From Gammaproteobacteria bacterium (GTDB taxonomy: Bacteria > Pseudomonadota > Gammaproteobacteria > UBA9339), in contig JAZNNJ010000014.1 in the NCBI GenBank assembly GCA_045580225.1, forward strand, positions 1,922-65,921: 64,000 bases of DNA, in the 5' to 3' direction. A program made the translations under genes and the position numbers. Under the pieces are notes generated by a model, which was given only the letters and a program-made list of their open reading frames with translations, did no database searches and was not told where the DNA came from. How positions within the stretch are numbered: the stretch's first letter is position 1; every line of letters starts with the position of its first letter. Below are positions 32,988 to 50,290 of the stretch, piece after piece.

Positions 32988-33919
32988 ATATAAAAAAAAC
33001 ATTTTGCATTTTACCATCAGAAGTAGGACTGCGCGTCGACGTTGTATTAACAAAACGTTTAAATTACTCCCGAACAATTATAGCACAATGGTTGAAAACT
33101 AAAAAAATTTTACTTAACAATACCTTTATTTCTCCTAAAAAAAAGGTAAAACTGGGAGATATAATTGAAGTGAGTGTATCAATCGAGACATCCAATGAAG
33201 CTAAGGAAGATAATGGAATATTAACAGTTTTATTCGAAGATTCTGATATAATCGTTATCAATAAACCATCAGGACTAGTAGTCCATCCTGGAGCAGGAAT
33301 TAAAGAAGGAACTTTACTAAACCGCTTGTATTATCATTATCCAGAAACCAAAATTTTACCACGCGGTGGTATCGTACATCGACTAGATAAAGACACTACG
33401 GGATTAATGGTAATTGCTAAAAATTTAACTAGTCATCAAATCCTAGTTAAAATGTTTACTGAACGACAAATCAATAAAATCTACCGTGCTATCGTAATAG
33501 GAAAATTAATTACTGGAGGAAAAATTGAAGCAAATATCAATAGAAACCCTAATAATCGCACACTAAAACAAGTTTGTAACAATGGTGGTTTATATGCATT
33601 AACTTATTACAAAATCATAAAAAATTATCGTAACTTTACCGAATTACAAATTAAAATTGAAACGGGAAGAACTCATCAAATTCGTGTACATCTTAGCCAT
33701 TTAGGATTTCCGATAATCGGCGACCAAGCTTACAATCATCGCACTATATCCCCTAAAGTTGGACAAGTAATTATTGATAATCTTCCAATACGACAACTAT
33801 TACATGCAGAACAACTTAATTTTCTACACCCTACTAAAAAAATAACTATGGAATTTACAGCACCATTACCTAAAGATTTCATTGATTTCAAAACATTATT
33901 AGAACAAAACAACTTATAA
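32984..33919 (+). CDS. rluD: 23S rRNA pseudouridine synthase, RluD-like (RluA family)
   Basis: 311 aa. N-terminal S4 domain and the catalytic HRLDKDTTG motif. 4-nt overlap with ftsK. Confidence 0.82.
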   Translation: MNIKKTFCILPSEVGLRVDVVLTKRLNYSRTIIAQWLKTKKILLNNTFISPKKKVKLGDIIEVSVSIETSNEAKEDNGILTVLFEDSDIIVINKPSGLVVHPGAGIKEGTLLNRLYYHYPETKILPRGGIVHRLDKDTTGLMVIAKNLTSHQILVKMFTERQINKIYRAIVIGKLITGGKIEANINRNPNNRTLKQVCNNGGLYALTYYKIIKNYRNFTELQIKIETGRTHQIRVHLSHLGFPIIGDQAYNHRTISPKVGQVIIDNLPIRQLLHAEQLNFLHPTKKITMEFTAPLPKDFIDFKTLLEQNNL

Positions 33920-34034
33920 TGCAGATTAATAACTTTTCCAAATGCTATATAATTTTTACTCTAAAAATATTCTACCAATAACTCAATAAATCAATCTATA
34001 ATAGTAATCAATAAAATTTACATTTATCTAAAGA

Positions 34035-34871
34035 TCACATCGTTTTTTCTGTATATTTTTTACCATCTATCAATTCTTTACTCAATTTTTGATACAAAGA
34101 CATTACAAGAGACGGAGTAAGAATTAGTGACATGAATACTCTAAATGAAGTAATAATAGACACAAAACATAAAAAAGAAGTAGTAGACGTAAACGACAAT
34201 TCGTCAGAAATTGAAACAAAATACATCCCAATACAACTAGTAATCAAAAATGAAAATGCAGCAAAAATAAAAAAATACCAAATGATTTTAAACTTATGTA
34301 AATTAAATAACTGAAAAGCTAATCTAATCTTTTTAATTAAACTACCATCAGACACAAAAAGTAATACCGGAACAACTAATTTTTGAACAATCATCAACAT
34401 TATTCCGTAACTAATACAAAAAATACTACCAAAAATTTTTAATAACTCTGGGACAGAAGAACCTATTTTATTTACCCAAAATAGATAAATCAATAAAATT
34501 AAATTAGGTATGAATAATATTAAACTAACTGCTAAATATTTAAAAGAAAAAAATACGATATCTTTAAACCACCACTTAAAAGAATGTGATAGCGATTTAT
34601 TATCATCATAATTTTTCAAATTACGATATACCACCACTAGCATACCAGAATAACATAAATAAATAAAAAACAAGCCAAATACCACCAAGAACAAAAATAA
34701 ACAGGCACTAAATAAACTACTTGGTTTACCTAAAATATTTATAACTACTATATACGAAACTATTGATATAATCGACAAAAAAATTAATATAAAAACCTTC
34801 TTTTTTTCTTTAAAAATGAACCCTATTCTCGAAAAAGTATCTTTAACTATATTGGATAACTTTGTACTCAT
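34035..34871 (-). CDS. Multi-pass membrane protein of unknown function
   Basis: 278 aa with about 6 hydrophobic segments. No recognisable motif. Confidence 0.5.
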   Translation of the reverse strand: MSTKLSNIVKDTFSRIGFIFKEKKKVFILIFLSIISIVSYIVVINILGKPSSLFSACLFLFLVVFGLFFIYLCYSGMLVVVYRNLKNYDDNKSLSHSFKWWFKDIVFFSFKYLAVSLILFIPNLILLIYLFWVNKIGSSVPELLKIFGSIFCISYGIMLMIVQKLVVPVLLFVSDGSLIKKIRLAFQLFNLHKFKIIWYFFIFAAFSFLITSCIGMYFVSISDELSFTSTTSFLCFVSIITSFRVFMSLILTPSLVMSLYQKLSKELIDGKKYTEKTM

Positions 34872-34896
34872 AGTTCTATTTCTCCATAATATGTAC

Positions 34897-35640
34897 TTAC
34901 AATTTAACTTCTTTCATCCCCTTCATAATCAAATTACGTGCCTCAATAGCTTGCAATTTAGTTAAAGGTAATATTCCCTTTAAAGGGTAATCAATACCCA
35001 AGTTCTCATATTTAGCAATTGCCATATTGTGATAAGGTAATACATCTAAAGCCTTAATATTTTTTAATTCTGCTAAAAAAACTCCCAATTCCACTAAATA
35101 TTTTTCATCAAAAGTAATTCCAGGAACCACTACATGTCTAATCCAGACCGGTACTGATTTTTCAGACAAATACCTCGCAAAATCTAAAATATTTTTATTA
35201 GATACCCCTGTTAATTTTTTATGTTCACCATTATCAATGTGTTTTATATCCAACAAAACTAAATCTGTAAAACACAACAACTTATCGATTTTTCTCGTAT
35301 CTTTACGATCAAAAATAACTCCAGAAGTATCTAAAGCAGTATGAATATGATACTGCTTTGCATATTTAAACAATTCAATTACAAAATCAATTTGCACCAA
35401 AGGCTCACCACCAGTAACAGTAATTCCTCCTTTGACAAATTCTTTCACTCCATTATATCTATCGAAAATTTCCTCAACCGACATCTGTTGATTAACCTTA
35501 CTCGATAAACTATCTGGATTATGACAATATTTACAACGCAGCGGACATCCCTGCATAAAAACAACAAACCTAACCCCTGGCCCATCGACAGTACCACAAC
35601 TTTCAATTGAATGAATATTTCCTAATATTTTTTTCATCAA
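34897..35640 (-). CDS. pflA: Pyruvate formate-lyase activating enzyme (radical SAM)
   Basis: 247 aa. CPLRCKYCHNPD cluster motif and overall similarity to PflA. Confidence 0.92.
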   Translation of the reverse strand: MMKKILGNIHSIESCGTVDGPGVRFVVFMQGCPLRCKYCHNPDSLSSKVNQQMSVEEIFDRYNGVKEFVKGGITVTGGEPLVQIDFVIELFKYAKQYHIHTALDTSGVIFDRKDTRKIDKLLCFTDLVLLDIKHIDNGEHKKLTGVSNKNILDFARYLSEKSVPVWIRHVVVPGITFDEKYLVELGVFLAELKNIKALDVLPYHNMAIAKYENLGIDYPLKGILPLTKLQAIEARNLIMKGMKEVKL

Positions 35641-35643
35641 AAT

Positions 35644-35684
35644 AAAAAATACCCACTAAATCAAAACAATAAAAGCGGGTATTT
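35644..35684 (-). terminator. Possible terminator or attenuator between the glycyl-radical cistron and pflA
   Basis: On the minus strand: ATACCCGC...(19-nt loop)...GTGGGTAT (one mismatch) followed by TTTTTTATT. Confidence 0.35.
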
Positions 35685-35702
35685 ATCAATATACTAATAA
35701 CT

Positions 35703-35942
35703 CTACATAGAACCATGAAAAGTTCTAGATATTACATCATCCTGTTGCTCTTTAGTTAATTTAATAAAATTAACCGCATACCCAGAAACCCTTACCGTTA
35801 ATTGAGGATATCTCTCAGGATGCGCCTGAGCATCCAACAGAGTTTCTCGATTAAAAACATTAACATTCAAATGATGTCCCCCTTTTTCAACATATCCGTC
35901 TAAAAGACTAATTAAATTCTCTTCTTGTACCGTTGCTTTCAT
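35703..35942 (-). CDS. Stand-alone glycyl-radical domain (C-terminal piece of PflB; GrcA/YfiD-like)
   Basis: 79 aa. [26 protein letters not shown]...[35 protein letters not shown] equals the last ~75 residues of E. coli PflB, including the RVSGYAV radical glycine. It has its own RBS. Confidence 0.88.
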
Positions 35943-35960
35943 ATATCACCTTCTTTATTA
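35943..35960 (-). promoter_or_regulatory. Intercistronic junction: TAA TAA AGA AGG TGA TAT then ATG (three in-frame stops plus a Shine-Dalgarno sequence)
   Basis: Read directly from the sequence. AAGGTGA is centred about 8 nt upstream of the ATG. The same SD form (AAGGTGA) is used by the gene at 11260. Confidence 0.75.
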
Positions 35961-38054
35961 ATCTAAATTAGTTTCACAACATCCACAATCAAAATTTACT
36001 TCTAAATCACTAACAAATACTTCATCCTTACCTAAAGCGTTAGGAATAATTGAAAAAGTATTTGAAATACCATCTTGAGCATAGTTAAATGGCAATTTAG
36101 CTACCGATGATAAAGAAGCTGCCGCACCATTAACATCACGACCGTGCATAGGATTAGCTCCAGGAGCTAATGGAATACCAGCTTTTCTACCATCTGGCGT
36201 ATTCCCAGTTTTTTTCCCATAAACAACGTTGGAAGTAATCGTTAAAATAGACATAGTTGGAATTGAATTACGATAAGTATAATGTTTCCTAATTTTAGCC
36301 ATAAAAGTCTTAACTAAATTCACGGCCAATTGATCAACACGATCATCATTATTTCCATATTTAGGAAAATCACCATTCACTTCATAGTCCACTACAATAC
36401 CACTTTCATCCCTAATAGTCTTCACCTTAGCATACTTTATTGCTGAAAGTGAATCAGCTACAACTGACAAACCAGCAATACCCGTAGCAAAATAACGTTT
36501 AACATCTCGATCATGAAGTGCCATTTGGGCTCTTTCGTAACAATACTTATCATGCATATAATGAATCACATTTAAAGTATTAACATACAAACCAGCTAAC
36601 CATTCCATCATATCATCATACCGTTCCATTACTTCATCGAAATTTAAATATTCCGAAGTAATTGGACGATATTTAGGACCAACTTGAACTTTTAAACGCT
36701 CATCAATTCCACCATTAATCGCATACAATAAACATTTAGCTAAATTAGCACGAGCGCCGAAAAATTGCATTTCTTTTCCCACAACCATTGAAGATACACA
36801 ACATGCAATTGCGTAATCATCTCCATGAGTAACTCGCATTAAATCATCATTTTCATATTGCACAGAAGAAGTTTTAATTGAAATATGAGCACAATATTGT
36901 TTAAAACCATAAGGCAAACGAGTCGACCATAAAACCGTCATGTTAGGTTCTGGTGCAGTACCTAAATTTTCTAAAGTACGCAAATATCTAAAAGAATTCT
37001 TGGTAACTAAAGGCCTTCCATCTACTCCAATTCCGCCAATTGATTCTGTAATCCACGTTGGATCTCCAGAAAATAATTCGTTATATTCTGGAGTTCTAGC
37101 AAATCTTACCAAACGTAATTTCATAATAAAATGGTCAATCATTTCCTGGGCTTCTACCTCAGTAATAACCCCTTCCTTCAAATCTCTTTCAATATAAATA
37201 TCCAAGAAAGTAGAAGTTCTTCCCAAACTCATTGCTGCTCCATTTTGCTCCTTGACCGCAGACAAATAACCAAAATATAACCATTGAATAGCTTCCTTTG
37301 CATTTCGTGCAGGTTGAGAAATATCAAAACCATAAATTTGGCCTAGCTTTTTCATTTCATCTAAAGCTCTAATCTGTTCCGCAATTTCTTCCCTTAATTG
37401 AATCCTATCTGGAATCATTTCTCCTTCTAAAGAAGCAAATTGCTCTTTCTTATCCTCAATTAAACGGTCAATACCATAAAGTGCAATCCTTCGATAGTCA
37501 CCAATAATACGCCCCCTTCCATAAGCATCCGGCAATCCAGTGATAATAGCAGAATGTCTAGCAGCTTTCATTTCTGGAGTATAAACATCAAATACCCCTT
37601 GGTTATGAGTTTTTCTAAACCTATTAAAAATATCAGAAACTTCCGAATCAACTTGGTACCCATAAGCTTTACACGCACTTTCTGCCATTCTAATTCCACC
37701 GAAAGGCTGCATAGAACGTTTTAAAGGAACATCCGTCTGCAAACCAACAATCACTTCTAAATCTTTATTAAGATAACCGGCATTATGCGAAGTAATAGTA
37801 GATACAACCTTTGTATCCATATCAATTACACCACCATTTTCACGCTCCTTTTTAGATAAATCAGAACATTCTTTCCATAATTTTAAAGTAGCTTCAGTTG
37901 GTCCTGTTAAAAAATCAGCATCACCTTCATATAAAGTATAATTACGCTGGATAAAATCCCTAACATTAATCTCTTGTTCCCATTTTCCACCTACAAACTT
38001 AGCTGCAGGATAAAATTTCTTTTCTACATCTTTCGTCATTTTTCCTCTACTCAC
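35958..38054 (-). CDS. pflB: Pyruvate formate-lyase core (lacks the glycyl-radical C-terminus)
   Basis: 698 aa. Colinear with E. coli PflB up to ...[11 protein letters not shown]. It contains the CC active site (IACCVS) and ends in a non-homologous tail, [21 protein letters not shown]. Confidence 0.9.
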
Positions 38055-38202
38055 TTAACCACATTCTATCCAAATAATTTTAACTCATTTTTATTTTTGT
38101 ACAACTAAATTTTATAAAACATCCAATTTTATAAAATAACATCATACAATTACAAGGAAAACTCAGACATCCATGTCCAATTAATATCTTCCCTAATCAT
38201 AA

Positions 38203-41200
38203 TTAATTACCATTTTTATTTACTTCCAAATCTATGCTCAATTGAAATTCCTCATTAAGCTTTTGTAAAACTTTATTAGCTTCGACATTACCCACTTTAG
38301 CCATCACCATTAAATCTTTATTAATCAAATCTCCAATAATTTCATCTATGTCAACTACTCCTTCATCCACCAATCCTAATCCTTTGTAAATCCCATCAAA
38401 AATCTTTTCATTTATTTGATTATCTAACACAACAGGATGATTAACCTCATACCAAACTTTAATTAAAATACATAACTTATTTAACTGATTTTCATCACCG
38501 CTTTGATTTCCTAATAAAAATTTCAACCAATCTCTATTCAAATTTTTTATCTGTTGCACAAAAGTCGCAAAATTATCAAGGTTATTCCTTTGCTTATCAA
38601 ACAACAACTTAAACTTTCTTATCATTTTGCCACGCTCTTCGGTATTAACGACACACGATTTGATCTTAACACTAGACAATACTAATAAAGATAACTCATC
38701 ATTACTACTAACAAGATCATTAAAGCGCCTCCACGATAAAATAGGTTCACCAAACGCAGGCTGAGAATTAACTATTTCTATACTAATTTGTTTAAAGTTA
38801 TCAATTAATTTCATTATTTCAACATAATTACTATTATCAGTAGTAATTAATTTATTACAATGATCAACCAATACCTGTTTTAATAATTCCTTTTGTTTAT
38901 CGGATAAAGCGATATTTCGTAATTTACCAACCATATCCTCTAAGTTATTAACACCTGACAACATACTTAAACAGCGATTTAAATTTTCAAAAGTACTTGA
39001 CCACTCATCAAAATACTCACCAAATAACTTAACACCAACTTCTATAGATTTACTTTTTTCTACTACATCCCTCAAATCTTCATCCAACATCTCATCTTTT
39101 ATAAGATGCCTATTTAGATCACTTTCAATAATTTTTAAAATATCCTTCTTTTTATTGGCAACTGTTGTCCAGTCAAAAAAACATCCCATGTATTCCAAGA
39201 TTTTTTGAGATAATTTATCATCCTGGTTATCACTTAAACTAGACAATTCTATAAATAGATACTGTTCTACTGTAGTAAAACCAATTTTCTTAAGAAAATC
39301 CTTCGTATTTACTTTACCTAAAGCATCAAAATAAGCTCCTAACGAATTATATCTACCTCCAAAGACACCTGTTTTAATCCACAATGCAGCTCTAATTTTA
39401 TCATGGAGTTTTTCTTTAGATGTCAACTTTCCAACTATTTTCCAATTACTACAAATATCCAATAATGTATCCCCATCTGGACTATAATTATTAACCTTTA
39501 TTTTTAAAGCTTCAAAATCATCAAATTTTTCCTTCAATTCTACCCATTGCTTTAATTCATTAATATTTGCTATTCTTACCCTATTTATAATATTATTTAT
39601 CTTATTTTCTATTAAGCTACGATGATTAGGATATTCATTTAACAACATTAACCATTGTTCAACTTCACCTATATTACTAGAAACAGACATACCTTTTATA
39701 ATTTTTTCTATTTTTTTAGTTACTATTCCCGTAGGATTATTATAAGACTTGCCTAAGTCTAACCATGGCTTCAGTTCATCTATAGATTTTGGTTCAATCA
39801 TATCATTTACTTTTTCTATAATGATTTCCTTCAACTCTAGCCACTCTTGTACATATTCCTCATTTGTTTCAAAATCCCTCATTTTAACATTTACCAGTTT
39901 ATCTCCTTTTTCTAACCAACTTTTCAACTCATTTACGTCCTTTGGATCTTGAATATCAGTTATCAACCTAATAAACCAAAGAGCATTATCCCTAAAACAC
40001 TTTTGAATTTCACTATATCCTTCCATTTCAACCAAGTGATCGATAAAAACACGAGCTATTTTTTCAATTTGTAATTTAATTTCTTCAGAGACATTATCTA
40101 TATTTCGAATAATTTCATTCCAAAATTTAAATTTCAGACCATCACCCCAATCAGAATGCTCAATAAAATTCTCAATCCATTCAGAAAACTTTTCTTCGTT
40201 TTCTAATAAATCTTCTAAATTTAATACTCCATCTAATAACTCCTGTTCCGCTCTGTTAAAACCAACATATTCAAGAAATTGATCTTTATCTTCCTGTTCT
40301 ACTAAATTTAAACATTCTTTTAATAATTCGCTATCCTTAATTAATTCTAAAATACCGGTCGGCATAACCCCTACACTTCGTATTGCTCGCCAATAATTAC
40401 AATAAAATACTAATCTATCATCGTCTGTTTTATCTCCATCATTCAAATACTCTTCTATTCTATTTTCCATCAATTTATAATCTTGTATTTCAAAGAAATC
40501 CATAAGGTAATTGCGGCTCTGATATGTTTTTACTTGTTCATATAAATCGATTTCCTCATCAGAATTATTTTTAAATTTAACTCCAATGAAATGTTCAATA
40601 ACATCATCACTGACGACAAACTTATTCTCTACCCCCCAATCATAATTATCTTCCAAACGCTTTAAAATCGCCTGATACCAATCCTCTTGAGAAGAAAAAC
40701 ATTCACTTGGATAATCACTACTATCTAATTTAATATCTCCAGATAAATATTTATTAATTTCGCACAATCTTTGCAATTCTTTTAACTTATCATCTGATTC
40801 TTCCAAACACTTAAATTCCTTAAATGTAAAATCATTTTTTGCTAACGATAATAACCTTTCTTGATTTGTCTCAGATAGCTCAGAAAATTTAAAATCAATC
40901 GCTGACACATAAGATTTCAATAGTTTATTATCATCAATCCAATTAAATATATTTTCAGCAGTAATATTCAAATATTTTAAACCACGTTGATATTTAATAA
41001 GAAAAGTAATTTTTAACTTATCATTTAAACTACTAAAATAATTCTTTAATTCGTCCGCTTGTAATTTACCAGAAACTCTATCAAATATTTTATTTAGAAT
41101 TCCTTTACTTTCATCTACTTTTTTACTGTAATCACTTAATTCTTTTAACAGTTCATTTCGATTTTTATATATCTCTACCTGATCACATAATTTAACTGAA

Positions 41201-47575: not shown

Positions 47576-50290
47576 TTATTGAATTGGTATGCAAACAAAA
47601 TCTGTTAATAAATTTGGTATAAATGGATTGTAACTACTTGTTAATAAATAAAAATACTCTTTACCAATGGAAATTTTAAACTTTCCTCCTTTTATGTGTT
47701 TTAGATCTATTTGATCAAGTAGTTTGAACCATGCCCAAATACCGTGTTGTGATAATGTATTAGTTTTAATATTATCTGTATAATTTAAAATAACAGTTTG
47801 ATTAATAGGCCAATTAAAAGATGGAACCATGGATAAATTTATTGCGTGATTATCAACTATTAAATTTAGTTTACTACTAGATTCTAAATTAGCTAAAGAA
47901 AAACTAAATCCTAGTTTATGGTTTATATAAAAAGCTTTTTGTATTAAAATGCTTCTTATTCCTATATCTAAAAAATAACTACCAAATGGTAATTTATTGT
48001 TTTCTATATTTTTCCAATCCCAATTCAAATGTTCTTTGATTATAACATATGGTTGTAAATAGTTTTTAACGAAATTTTCTAGGATTTGTCCAGGTCCAAA
48101 AAATTTATCAAAATTTTCTTTAGTTAAATCTTTATTACTTAATTTATCAAATGGATAATATCCGTGAATTAGTTGTTGATATTTAGGAATAATTTTATCA
48201 TTCCATTCTTTTTTTATTTCATTAAAAACTTCATGAGCTATTTCATTTAGTGTTTGTTTTTTTATTTGTGATATTAAAGCATCATATCCTGGTATATTTT
48301 TAATGTTTAACGAAAAACTTTGCCAATTTTTTCCATTGGATTGAAAATATTCTTTTAACCATTTGCTAGCATTTAAATTTTTTTGAAGAGTAACAAATTT
48401 ACTTATCTCTATTTTAAAATTTTTCCATTCTGATTGTAATTTTATTTTCCACAATTCAAATTCTTCAATACCGTTTGGTAAATTATTGATAATTGTGTTT
48501 ATCTCTTTTGGTAATTGATTTGATTTATTCCAATCAATTAAAGATTTTGTTAAAGACTTATTACCAAGAAAATTATTTAAATTTTGCCAGAAACTAACAT
48601 AATTATTGATATATACTTGTTGAATGTGTGTAAGTAACTCTTTATTAGTTTGATTTTTTAATTTCGGTAGTTTTAATATTGTTTTGTAACATTGTTGATG
48701 AAAATAATGACTAAAATATTTCTTTAAATACATTTCTGGTACAAAAATGTATTTTTGGTTTAATTTTATCGGTTGTTTAGTAAATTTATTTTTTGATAGT
48801 TGATTATTTATTAATGTTTGTTGAACATCTAATACTAATTGCTTATTAATAGACTCAATATTATTTAATGGATAATTTGGATTTAAATCGATGTTTAATT
48901 GTTTCTTTAACCACTGTGATAAGAATAGTTTTTCAAATTTACTAGTTTGTTGGAAGGCCAAGTAAGCGCGTAAAGTATTAGGTAAAATGTCTAGCTTTTT
49001 TAATTTTATTTGTTCTTCTAGAGCTTTTTCTACTAAATTTTGGTAAAAAAATAATTGTTGACTATTTATTTTCCAACTATGTATTTGTGAAATAATTTTT
49101 TTATAATCTAAATTGTAAAATTTTCCTATGTTATCTTTAGTTGTAAGTGTGATGGGTAAGGAGTTGAAATTTTCTAATTGAAATTCCTTTTTTATTTTTG
49201 AAATAATGTCGGTATTTTTTTTGTATAATGTGCCTAAGAATAAGCTAATGGAAGTAATTATAATTCCTATGAACAAATATAAACTGCGATAATCGATACT
49301 AACTATATTTTTAGATTTATTTGTAATTAATTGAAAAAGTGGCGATGTAAAATAAGGTTTTTGTTCATTATAATAATCAGGTTGATTAAGATTAACTCCT
49401 AATGTTTTCAGGTAATTGTTAGTATTATAATCTATTTCTCCAAATAGTTGACAACTACTAGTAAAAAATATTCCATTTAAATTTATTAAGTTGCTGTTAG
49501 GAATTTTACTAATTATTGAAGATAATATCATTTTTGTTTCACTAAAATGAATATGAAATAGTTTAGTTTTATGTATTGATGTATTATCGGAATTGTTGCT
49601 TATGTGATTATCTATATTATTAATTAGTAAATCAAATTTACTTTGAAAATCTGATACAGTATCTTGTACTTTAGGATTAAATAAAATACCGAATGGTTCT
49701 AACAATTGTTGTTTATCCAATATTTTAAAAAAATCTTTACATCCGATAATTCTGTCGCATTTAGTCATTATTAGGTATATTTGTAAATAATTGACATGCT
49801 CTTTAGTTTCATAAATTCTCTTACGAAAACTAGATAAAATTGTTTCTAATTCTGATTTATTTTCCAGTAGATAAGGTAAATCAAAAATTAACAGTAGAGA
49901 TTGTATTATATTTCCAAAATGTTTTTTTAGCAATTTAATAAGTCCTATCCATATTTTTTGGTTTGAATATTCTCTTTGATTAGATTGAGTATAAAATCCA
50001 GCTGTATCTACAAAAATACCTTCCGATGAATACCAAAAAATGCAAGTTTTGGTAGGGAAGATTGTTGAATTTTTGGGTAATAATGATGAAGTATCTATTT
50101 GTTTAAGATTAGAATTTAATAATAGGGTAGATTTACCGTGTCCTGATGGTCCTAATAATAAAAAAATTTTTTTGTCTCTTATAAATTCATTTTTTTTGAA
50201 AAATTTTTTGGCTTGTTTTATCTTTTCTTTTAAAATAGTTAATTCTTGTTTAGTATATAAGAAATTTTCTTGATTCATTTTAATAAACAT
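47576..50290 (-). CDS. icmF: IcmF/TssM-family protein (Dot/Icm IcmF-like)
   Basis: 904 aa. Walker A LLLGPSGHGKSTLLLNS followed by FWYSSEGIFVDTAGFY (compare the TssM/IcmF form GPPGSGKT...WWFT.EAVLIDTAGRY). One transmembrane segment near aa 340-360. Paired with a DotU-like gene. Confidence 0.6.
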   Translation of the reverse strand: MFIKMNQENFLYTKQELTILKEKIKQAKKFFKKNEFIRDKKIFLLLGPSGHGKSTLLLNSNLKQIDTSSLLPKNSTIFPTKTCIFWYSSEGIFVDTAGFYTQSNQREYSNQKIWIGLIKLLKKHFGNIIQSLLLIFDLPYLLENKSELETILSSFRKRIYETKEHVNYLQIYLIMTKCDRIIGCKDFFKILDKQQLLEPFGILFNPKVQDTVSDFQSKFDLLINNIDNHISNNSDNTSIHKTKLFHIHFSETKMILSSIISKIPNSNLINLNGIFFTSSCQLFGEIDYNTNNYLKTLGVNLNQPDYYNEQKPYFTSPLFQLITNKSKNIVSIDYRSLYLFIGIIITSISLFLGTLYKKNTDIISKIKKEFQLENFNSLPITLTTKDNIGKFYNLDYKKIISQIHSWKINSQQLFFYQNLVEKALEEQIKLKKLDILPNTLRAYLAFQQTSKFEKLFLSQWLKKQLNIDLNPNYPLNNIESINKQLVLDVQQTLINNQLSKNKFTKQPIKLNQKYIFVPEMYLKKYFSHYFHQQCYKTILKLPKLKNQTNKELLTHIQQVYINNYVSFWQNLNNFLGNKSLTKSLIDWNKSNQLPKEINTIINNLPNGIEEFELWKIKLQSEWKNFKIEISKFVTLQKNLNASKWLKEYFQSNGKNWQSFSLNIKNIPGYDALISQIKKQTLNEIAHEVFNEIKKEWNDKIIPKYQQLIHGYYPFDKLSNKDLTKENFDKFFGPGQILENFVKNYLQPYVIIKEHLNWDWKNIENNKLPFGSYFLDIGIRSILIQKAFYINHKLGFSFSLANLESSSKLNLIVDNHAINLSMVPSFNWPINQTVILNYTDNIKTNTLSQHGIWAWFKLLDQIDLKHIKGGKFKISIGKEYFYLLTSSYNPFIPNLLTDFVCIPIQ

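Follow-up and report, generated by a model that had tools for sequence, protein, structure and literature searches.

A pyruvate formate-lyase encoded as a separate catalytic core and a small glycyl-radical protein

Is a pyruvate formate-lyase (PFL) whose reading frame stops just short of its glycyl-radical domain, and restarts at once on a new ATG, a broken gene, an error of assembly or an enzyme made of two polypeptides? The question is raised by positions 35703 to 38054 of the window analysed here, a stretch of 64,000 nucleotides from contig JAZNNJ010000014.1 that is assigned to a gammaproteobacterium. A first-pass annotation favoured the last of these answers. We conclude that the locus very probably encodes a functional, evolutionarily maintained two-subunit PFL, in which the radical domain is supplied by a 79-amino-acid (aa) protein of the GrcA3 family. 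Its parts are as follows.

35958..38039, minus strand: PFL catalytic core without the glycyl-radical half-domain, 693 aa from a probable ATG at 38039
35961..36023, minus strand: C-terminal tail of the core, 21 aa, without a counterpart in canonical PFL
35943..35960, minus strand: junction, read directly as TAA TAA AGA AGG TGA TAT and followed by ATG
35703..35942, minus strand: grcA3, the 79-aa glycyl-radical subunit, with its own Shine-Dalgarno (SD) sequence and ATG and a match to NF038360
34897..35637, minus strand: pflA, the radical-SAM PFL-activating enzyme, 246 aa from ATG, matching TIGR02493

The open reading frame (ORF) of the core runs from 38054 to 35958 on the minus strand and has 698 aa when counted from a GTG at 38054. 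The first-pass annotation had described this ORF as colinear with E. coli PflB, which holds over PflB residues 13-679, with the ATG at 38039 as the likelier start. This ATG is preceded by AGAGGA, an SD sequence, and gene calls made independently on other contigs likewise give 693 aa. Alignment with E. coli PflB shows the catalytic motifs to be intact, namely the Cys-Cys loop (AIACCVSSM) and FFGARAN. Against the PFL profile TIGR01255 the core scores 1135.4 bits (cut-off 994.2), but the match covers only profile positions 5-663 of 744, so that the score and the Cys-Cys loop are those of a PFL whereas the radical domain is not on the same polypeptide. In Pfam the core matches PFL-like together with positions 2-49 of the 106 in Gly_radical. 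The chain break falls between the equivalents of PflB residues 679 and 680, and the two ORFs are exact complements, with Gly_radical positions 51-106 and TIGR01255 positions 664-744 lying on the 79-aa protein. Judged from these alignments, the core comprises the whole barrel including the Cys-Cys active site, minus the last strand (beta10) and the glycine loop.

The 79-aa ORF aligns with E. coli PflB residues 680-759, RVSGYAV included, in agreement with its first description as the C-terminal glycyl-radical domain of PflB. The RVSGYAV motif occupies GrcA3 residues 51-57 (35772-35792), and the radical glycine is G54 (35781-35783). By the same alignment, the protein corresponds to a helix, strand beta10, the RVSGYAV loop and the C-terminal helix. 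It matches NCBIfam family NF038360 over positions 4-78 of 78 with 160.4 bits (cut-off 158, E = 8e-48). The title of this family is "autonomous glycyl radical cofactor GrcA3". As membership of GrcA3 entails, the protein is short (~78-85 aa), free-standing and carries RVSGYAV. Adjacency to a PFL core without a radical domain was used as our own operational criterion for GrcA3, and is not that of the curators; here, grcA3 begins 15 nt after a core whose last PflB-equivalent residue is 679. Moreover, GenBank proteins in the 90% cluster of the small protein are already named GrcA3 (for example Ruminococcus flavefaciens MDE6424975.1), and it is 81-96% identical to proteins that carry this name or are clustered with those that do. 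The feature is not unique: the small protein belongs to a curated family, and the split is common among its relatives. Five GrcA3 proteins (P0077, P0096, P0099, P0017 and P0024) have a C-terminal extension of ~55 aa with a conserved TPRTS[VI]GSMSMPSDF, and another (P0095) has an N-terminal extension with CCCGG instead.

Two other families of small protein fit less well. Against TIGR04365 (spare_glycyl) the 79-aa protein reaches 94.7 bits, below the cut-off of 170, and only its residues 20-79 match, at positions 67-126, the N-terminal region of ~60 residues being absent. The Fe-S small subunits of glycyl radical enzymes (GREs) have a HiPIP-like fold with four ligating Cys; the 79-aa protein contains no Cys, and neither it nor the tail of the core is of this type.

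As the first-pass annotation had read it, the junction contains three in-frame stops and an SD sequence, AAGGTGA (35952-35946), ahead of an ATG in the reading frame of the core, with a spacer of 15 nt; AAGGTGA also precedes the ATG at 11261, the second occurrence that it had pointed out. The same split was sought in relatives of the small protein in a scan of one genome per species, which gave at least 561 loci, of which the best 80 were kept. The ORF with the glycine loop is short in 79/80 of these; in one (L020) the loop was not found by motif search. Of the 63 related loci where both parts were resolved by our scripts, 62 are split at the same residue: the core terminates just past ALGK(D/E), and an independent small ORF follows that has an SD sequence and an ATG of its own. 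The split loci include isolates (Ruminococcus sp. YE71, Lachnoclostridium phytofermentans and Beduini massiliensis), and in Ruminococcus callidus ATCC 27760 (L081) a tblastn search shows a core that finishes near residue 686 and, apart from it, a short ORF for the glycyl-radical domain. The core, grcA3 and pflA adjoin one another in most loci. The core and grcA3 are not always adjacent, since in L037 a gap of ~3.2 kb between them holds a histidine kinase, a response regulator and other ORFs. The 120 nearest homologues of the core are all 688-717 aa long, and no close full-length homologue was found among them. A search of a 50%-representative library returned mostly fragments and gave no usable count of split versus fused forms.

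Both pieces bear the marks of selection. For the small ORF, comparison of 79 loci with the window gave a mean nonsynonymous divergence (pN) of 0.056 against a synonymous divergence (pS) of 0.90, at which synonymous sites are saturated, and for the last 150 codons of the core pN was 0.12 against a pS of 0.83. The small ORF is thus, by this measure, under strong purifying selection. The nearest relatives of the window are gut metagenome-assembled genomes (MAGs) of Gastranaerophilales (Melainabacteria). A neighbour-joining (NJ) tree groups all split cores in a single clade, separate from the canonical fused PFLs; this clade contains Clostridia, Erysipelotrichia and Gastranaerophilales, the window included, and within it Gastranaerophilales are nested among the Firmicute cores. 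The only fused PFL in the 80 loci (L080, a Treponemataceae MAG, 1844-4225, 794 aa), whose linker contains GNCMSCD, is nested within the split clade. The branching suggests that an old fission took place once, was followed by lateral spread and was reversed by a single re-fusion (L080), a history that we infer from an NJ tree without support values.

These observations bear directly on the other ways in which the locus could be explained. An assembly or sequencing artefact at the junction has only its general possibility in its favour and is the least credible of them: Logan assemblies of two different runs (DRR768644 and DRR768650) match the window at 99.9% identity over 5.8-6.0 kb and carry the identical junction, their 4-5 mismatches over ~6 kb lying elsewhere, and the isolate genomes are also split. 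Three stops interrupting an otherwise colinear frame are what a recent nonsense mutation or small insertion in pflB would leave, yet such pseudogenisation is very improbable, given that the same architecture recurs in dozens of species at saturated synonymous divergence, that pN/pS of the distal piece is ~0.06, that every relative has its own SD sequence and ATG, and that the core, the small ORF and pflA carry no other lesions. Programmed readthrough or recoding into a single fused polypeptide, to which the shared frame of the two ORFs in the window lends itself, deserves hardly more credence. It would require bypass of the tandem TAA TAA and of the TGA, whereas in relatives the small ORF lies in any of the three frames, behind spacers of 11-170 nt, each with its own SD sequence, or of ~200-450 nt where a third ORF is present. 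An Rfam scan of 33900-38400 gave no matches, and on that ground no intron, riboswitch or recoding element is recognised there. The split PFL is thus maintained and is neither decay nor an assembly artefact, and the central first-pass reading, of a two-polypeptide PFL and not random decay, is largely right.

A different kind of explanation is that GrcA3 is a spare part only, which repairs a full-length PFL encoded elsewhere, while the core is inactive or has another role. The family name, with its "autonomous" cofactor, speaks for this, as do the many relatives with unlinked copies of GrcA3 next to Crp/Fnr-type regulators, and the genome was viewed here through a window of 64 kb. The split point is nevertheless exact and complementary, the core is under purifying selection with all of its catalytic motifs intact, its 120 nearest proteins include no close full-length homologue, and the three genes are adjacent in most loci. 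We therefore regard a role restricted to repair as unlikely. GrcA3 genes without a core within 4 kb were found in at least 14 Gastranaerophilales loci (L013, L015, L021, L023, L028, L030, L031, L034, L035, L038-L040, L042 and L046). In L013, L030 and L034 a divergent regulator of the Crp/Fnr family lies directly upstream, and MAG CALUPJ01 has both a linked (L029) and an unlinked (L040) copy. In their arrangement, the unlinked copies fit a radical module that is replaceable and separately regulated.

The core does not simply end at the split point. Its tail, which had been counted as 20 aa, has 21 residues. In Gastranaerophilales the tail consensus is EVFMGDLxIxLDCGCCE, with F3, D6, G14 and C15 invariant, and the tail has a pN of 0.26 against a pS of 0.80. 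The final five residues differ between relatives (EGTCQ, EDTVE, ENNLN and others) while the preceding VF.GDL....D.GC is kept, which argues that the tail is a selected feature and not a scar. The tail of the window's core holds three Cys, of which just one is invariant in the family. A resemblance between ETNLD at the end of the core and EENLISLLD at the start of the small protein had been taken at first pass as evidence of a duplication at the junction. This echo is weak, as it falls in the variable last five residues and its register is not that of the best DNA repeat. The latter matches at 19/25 nt, in frame (VSDLEVNFD in the tail against ISLLDGYVE in GrcA3), and is equalled in ~1% of shuffles, yet it was recovered neither in relatives (17-24/48 nt in the same register) nor by profile comparison; a junction duplication is accordingly possible but unproven. 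Profile-profile comparison likewise matched the core tails neither to GrcA3 nor to the middle ORF of Firmicutes described below, and homology of the Gastranaerophilales tail to either is unproven.

The cores of Ruminococcus, Lachnoclostridium and Erysipelotrichaceae have a shorter tail (EVFAGDLDLDKLRGE), and in these taxa the interval from core to grcA3 holds a third ORF of ~70 aa. Across Firmicute split-PFL loci its length ranges from about 50 to 110 aa. This ORF was seen in L045, L052, L055-L060, L062-L065, L067-L069, L072-L077, L079 and L082. It follows the pattern ..EELADLIDKLMxQGxGHVNI...LKVDTVxSTDCGxKGAC[CAM]QPTE, and then an acidic tail. Its N-terminal half is homologous to the helix and strand of GrcA3 (hhalign probability 88%, E = 2.8e-6; hmmscan E = 4e-5), while DCG.KGAC.QPTE and the acidic tail stand in place of the glycine loop. 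There are 363 detectable relatives, all of them annotated as "hypothetical protein" and without a Pfam domain. On this basis we raise, tentatively and as the less probable case, the idea that split PFLs have a third, undescribed functional element, a Cys-bearing peptide between the core and the radical subunit. It may take the form of the core tail (VF.GDL....D.GCC) in the window and other Gastranaerophilales, and of the separate ~70-aa ORF in the three Firmicute taxa named above. One possible function of such an element is that of a placeholder or docking strand, by analogy with PflB residues 696-733 in E. coli; another is that of a redox-sensitive gate on when GrcA3 or PflA engages the core.

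Downstream of grcA3, pflA follows after a spacer of 65 nt that contains a hairpin and a T-run. The gene, whose position had been noted at first pass, is intact: PflA scores 285.8 bits against TIGR02493 (cut-off 231.75), matches Radical_SAM and Fer4_12 in Pfam, and its translation shows the cluster motif CPLRCKYC (CxxxCxxC), as expected of a PFL-activating enzyme. Two possible transcription signals were seen at the locus.

35639..35684, minus strand: hairpin AAAUACCCGC...GUGGGUAUUU followed by a U-run, between grcA3 and pflA
38126..38155, minus strand: promoter-like hexamers TTGTAA-18-TAAAAT upstream of the core, from a consensus scan only, with 9/12 positions matching

The predicted fold of the hairpin has -16.7 kcal/mol (z = -3.1 against shuffles), and with its U-run it looks like a terminator or attenuator. 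A consensus scan for terminators did not call it, because its loop exceeds the 8 nt that the scan allows. Promoter-like hexamer sites showed no enrichment over shuffles. Directly downstream of pflA, a 278-aa multi-pass membrane protein without a Pfam match is encoded at window positions 34035-34871 (minus strand), and may share the transcription unit, since it is also present on Logan contig L001.

How the two polypeptides would work together can be sketched from E. coli. There, the engineered truncated PFL, tPFL(1-695), combined with truncated YfiD(61-127) has a kcat of 204 /s per radical, against 105 /s for the wild type, and activation of YfiD requires a PFL partner (PMC8683613). In the window, the core and grcA3 would be co-transcribed and GrcA3 would be translated from its own strong SD sequence, 15 nt past the stop of the core, while the hairpin and U-run would lower transcription into pflA. 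GrcA3 would dock in the place within the core that the covalently attached domain takes in E. coli PFL, and PflA would then abstract the glycine hydrogen at G54. After oxygen damage only the 9-kDa subunit would need to be replaced. Exchange of the radical domain without remaking the core is plausible, given the literature on E. coli YfiD/GrcA and the extra, unlinked copies of GrcA3 in relatives. The conserved, Cys-bearing tail would probably serve, as we speculate, as a docking or recognition element for GrcA3, for PflA or for both.

Structure prediction agrees with such docking. An AlphaFold2 (AF2) model, in which the core and the small protein were joined end to end as a single chain and supplied with a 68-row alignment that includes fused PFLs, has a pLDDT of 89.8 and a pTM of 0.91, with pLDDT below 50 only at the N-terminus and at residues 671-695 (tail and junction). 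It superimposes on full-length E. coli PFL with a TM of 0.96 and a root-mean-square deviation of 1.4 A, and the small subunit takes the canonical fold and position of the radical domain. The model shows compatibility and is not proof of docking. When it was run without an alignment, AF2 gave a pLDDT of 35.5 for the core plus the small protein, which is unusable.

Several points weigh against a working two-subunit enzyme. The AF2 model is not independent evidence of docking, because it was built as a single chain on an alignment with fused PFLs. E. coli tPFL binds and activates YfiD poorly, and residues 696-733 of cleaved PFL, which hold the duplicate beta10 strand, are needed for YfiD binding (PMC8683613). 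To assemble efficiently, a natural split PFL must thus draw on features that are not yet understood. Moreover, the literature searched contained no biochemical or proteomic evidence for any natural split PFL, and a full-length PFL may also be encoded in the organism's own genome outside the 64-kb window.

The two-subunit reading can be set against the systems already described. From other GrcA3 proteins (NF038360) the small protein of the window differs in nothing of substance, sharing their length, the start M..QEENLI.LLDGY and the RVSGYAV loop. Like GrcA3, E. coli GrcA/YfiD (TIGR04365) and phage T4 Y06I are free-standing copies of the glycyl-radical domain of PFL; both are activated by PflA and can complete a PFL that lacks its own domain (PMC8683613; PMC13450708). 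However, YfiD has 127 aa, with a disordered N-terminus of 60 residues that is needed for binding, against 79 aa for the window protein, which starts 13 residues earlier in PflB numbering (680, against 693 for YfiD). YfiD serves full-length PFL only after oxygen cleavage, whereas the core of the window never has its own domain, and the yfiD gene is unlinked to pflB, whereas grcA3 sits between the core and pflA. In comparison with single-chain PFL (E. coli PflB, PDB 1H16/2PFL/1MZO), identity by structural alignment is 64-65%, the model has a TM of 0.96 and the catalytic residues are shared, but the chain is broken at 679/680 and the core has gained its 21-aa, Cys-bearing tail.

The best matches to the core in the PDB are two entries entitled 'Formate acetyltransferase', 38la (687 aa, 1170 bits) and 38lb (739 aa, 1109 bits). 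Both look like natural truncated PFL cores. The former stops one residue past ...SLGKE, where the core of the window is also split, and the latter continues into a non-radical tail, GNVMFGECDM...DCACA, that is comparable to the tail described above. They come from other organisms, being ~75-78% identical to Gastranaerophilales or Ruminococcus cores, and are presumably newer than a structure library ending 2026-04-08, from which they are absent. The 79-aa query matched no small-subunit chain of 38la or 38lb, and no publication on either was found in the literature searched. Extra small polypeptides on the catalytic subunit of a GRE are likewise present in HPAD (gamma), BSS (beta/gamma) and MASS (beta/gamma/delta) (PMC13450708). 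Those, however, are Fe-S or rubredoxin-like accessories and the radical glycine is on the large subunit, whereas here the small subunit is the radical domain itself. A GRE review of June 2026 gives small subunits for HPAD, BSS and MASS only, and treats spare-part proteins only as repair devices (PMC13450708); neither GrcA3 nor a natural split PFL was described in the literature searched. The split PFL is thus not new as a kind, as its family is named in NCBIfam and GenBank, though barely described.

The surroundings of the locus were also inspected. An origin from a phage or plasmid was rejected, as the window carries dnaN, recF, ftsK, enolase (eno), CTP synthase (pyrG) and uvrB, and by its gene content it is chromosomal. 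The genes recF and dnaN (45144-47356) lie at the minimum of the cumulative GC skew (-1.93 at 46-48 kb), and G+C drops to 0.23-0.24 at about 46000-50000; this region is probably that of the chromosomal replication origin. Directly upstream of the PFL core, at 38203-43077 (minus strand), is a 1624-aa ORF without a Pfam match that has a hydrophobic segment near residue 330 and a long internal duplication, in which ...LQRLCEINKYLSGDIK.D..DYP...FSSQEDWYQAILKRLEDNY.WG.ENKF... occurs twice. A gene cluster like those of type IV pili or type II secretion lies at 18807-25389 (plus strand) and consists of a secretin, a T2SSE-type ATPase and ORFs next to them.

For the window itself, the analysis mainly clarifies what is there: a real and conserved feature that already has a name and is no one-off. 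In automated annotation the core is labelled "formate C-acetyltransferase" and the small gene "GrcA", and the possible dependence of one on the other goes unflagged. Since PFL is normally split in taxa that abound in the gut and rumen (Ruminococcus, Lachnoclostridium, Erysipelotrichaceae and Gastranaerophilales), the arrangement matters for annotating and modelling formate production in their communities. Moreover, a natural PFL with a separate radical polypeptide bears on how the activase gains access to the buried glycine loop, and on how a spare-part domain is recognised and inserted.

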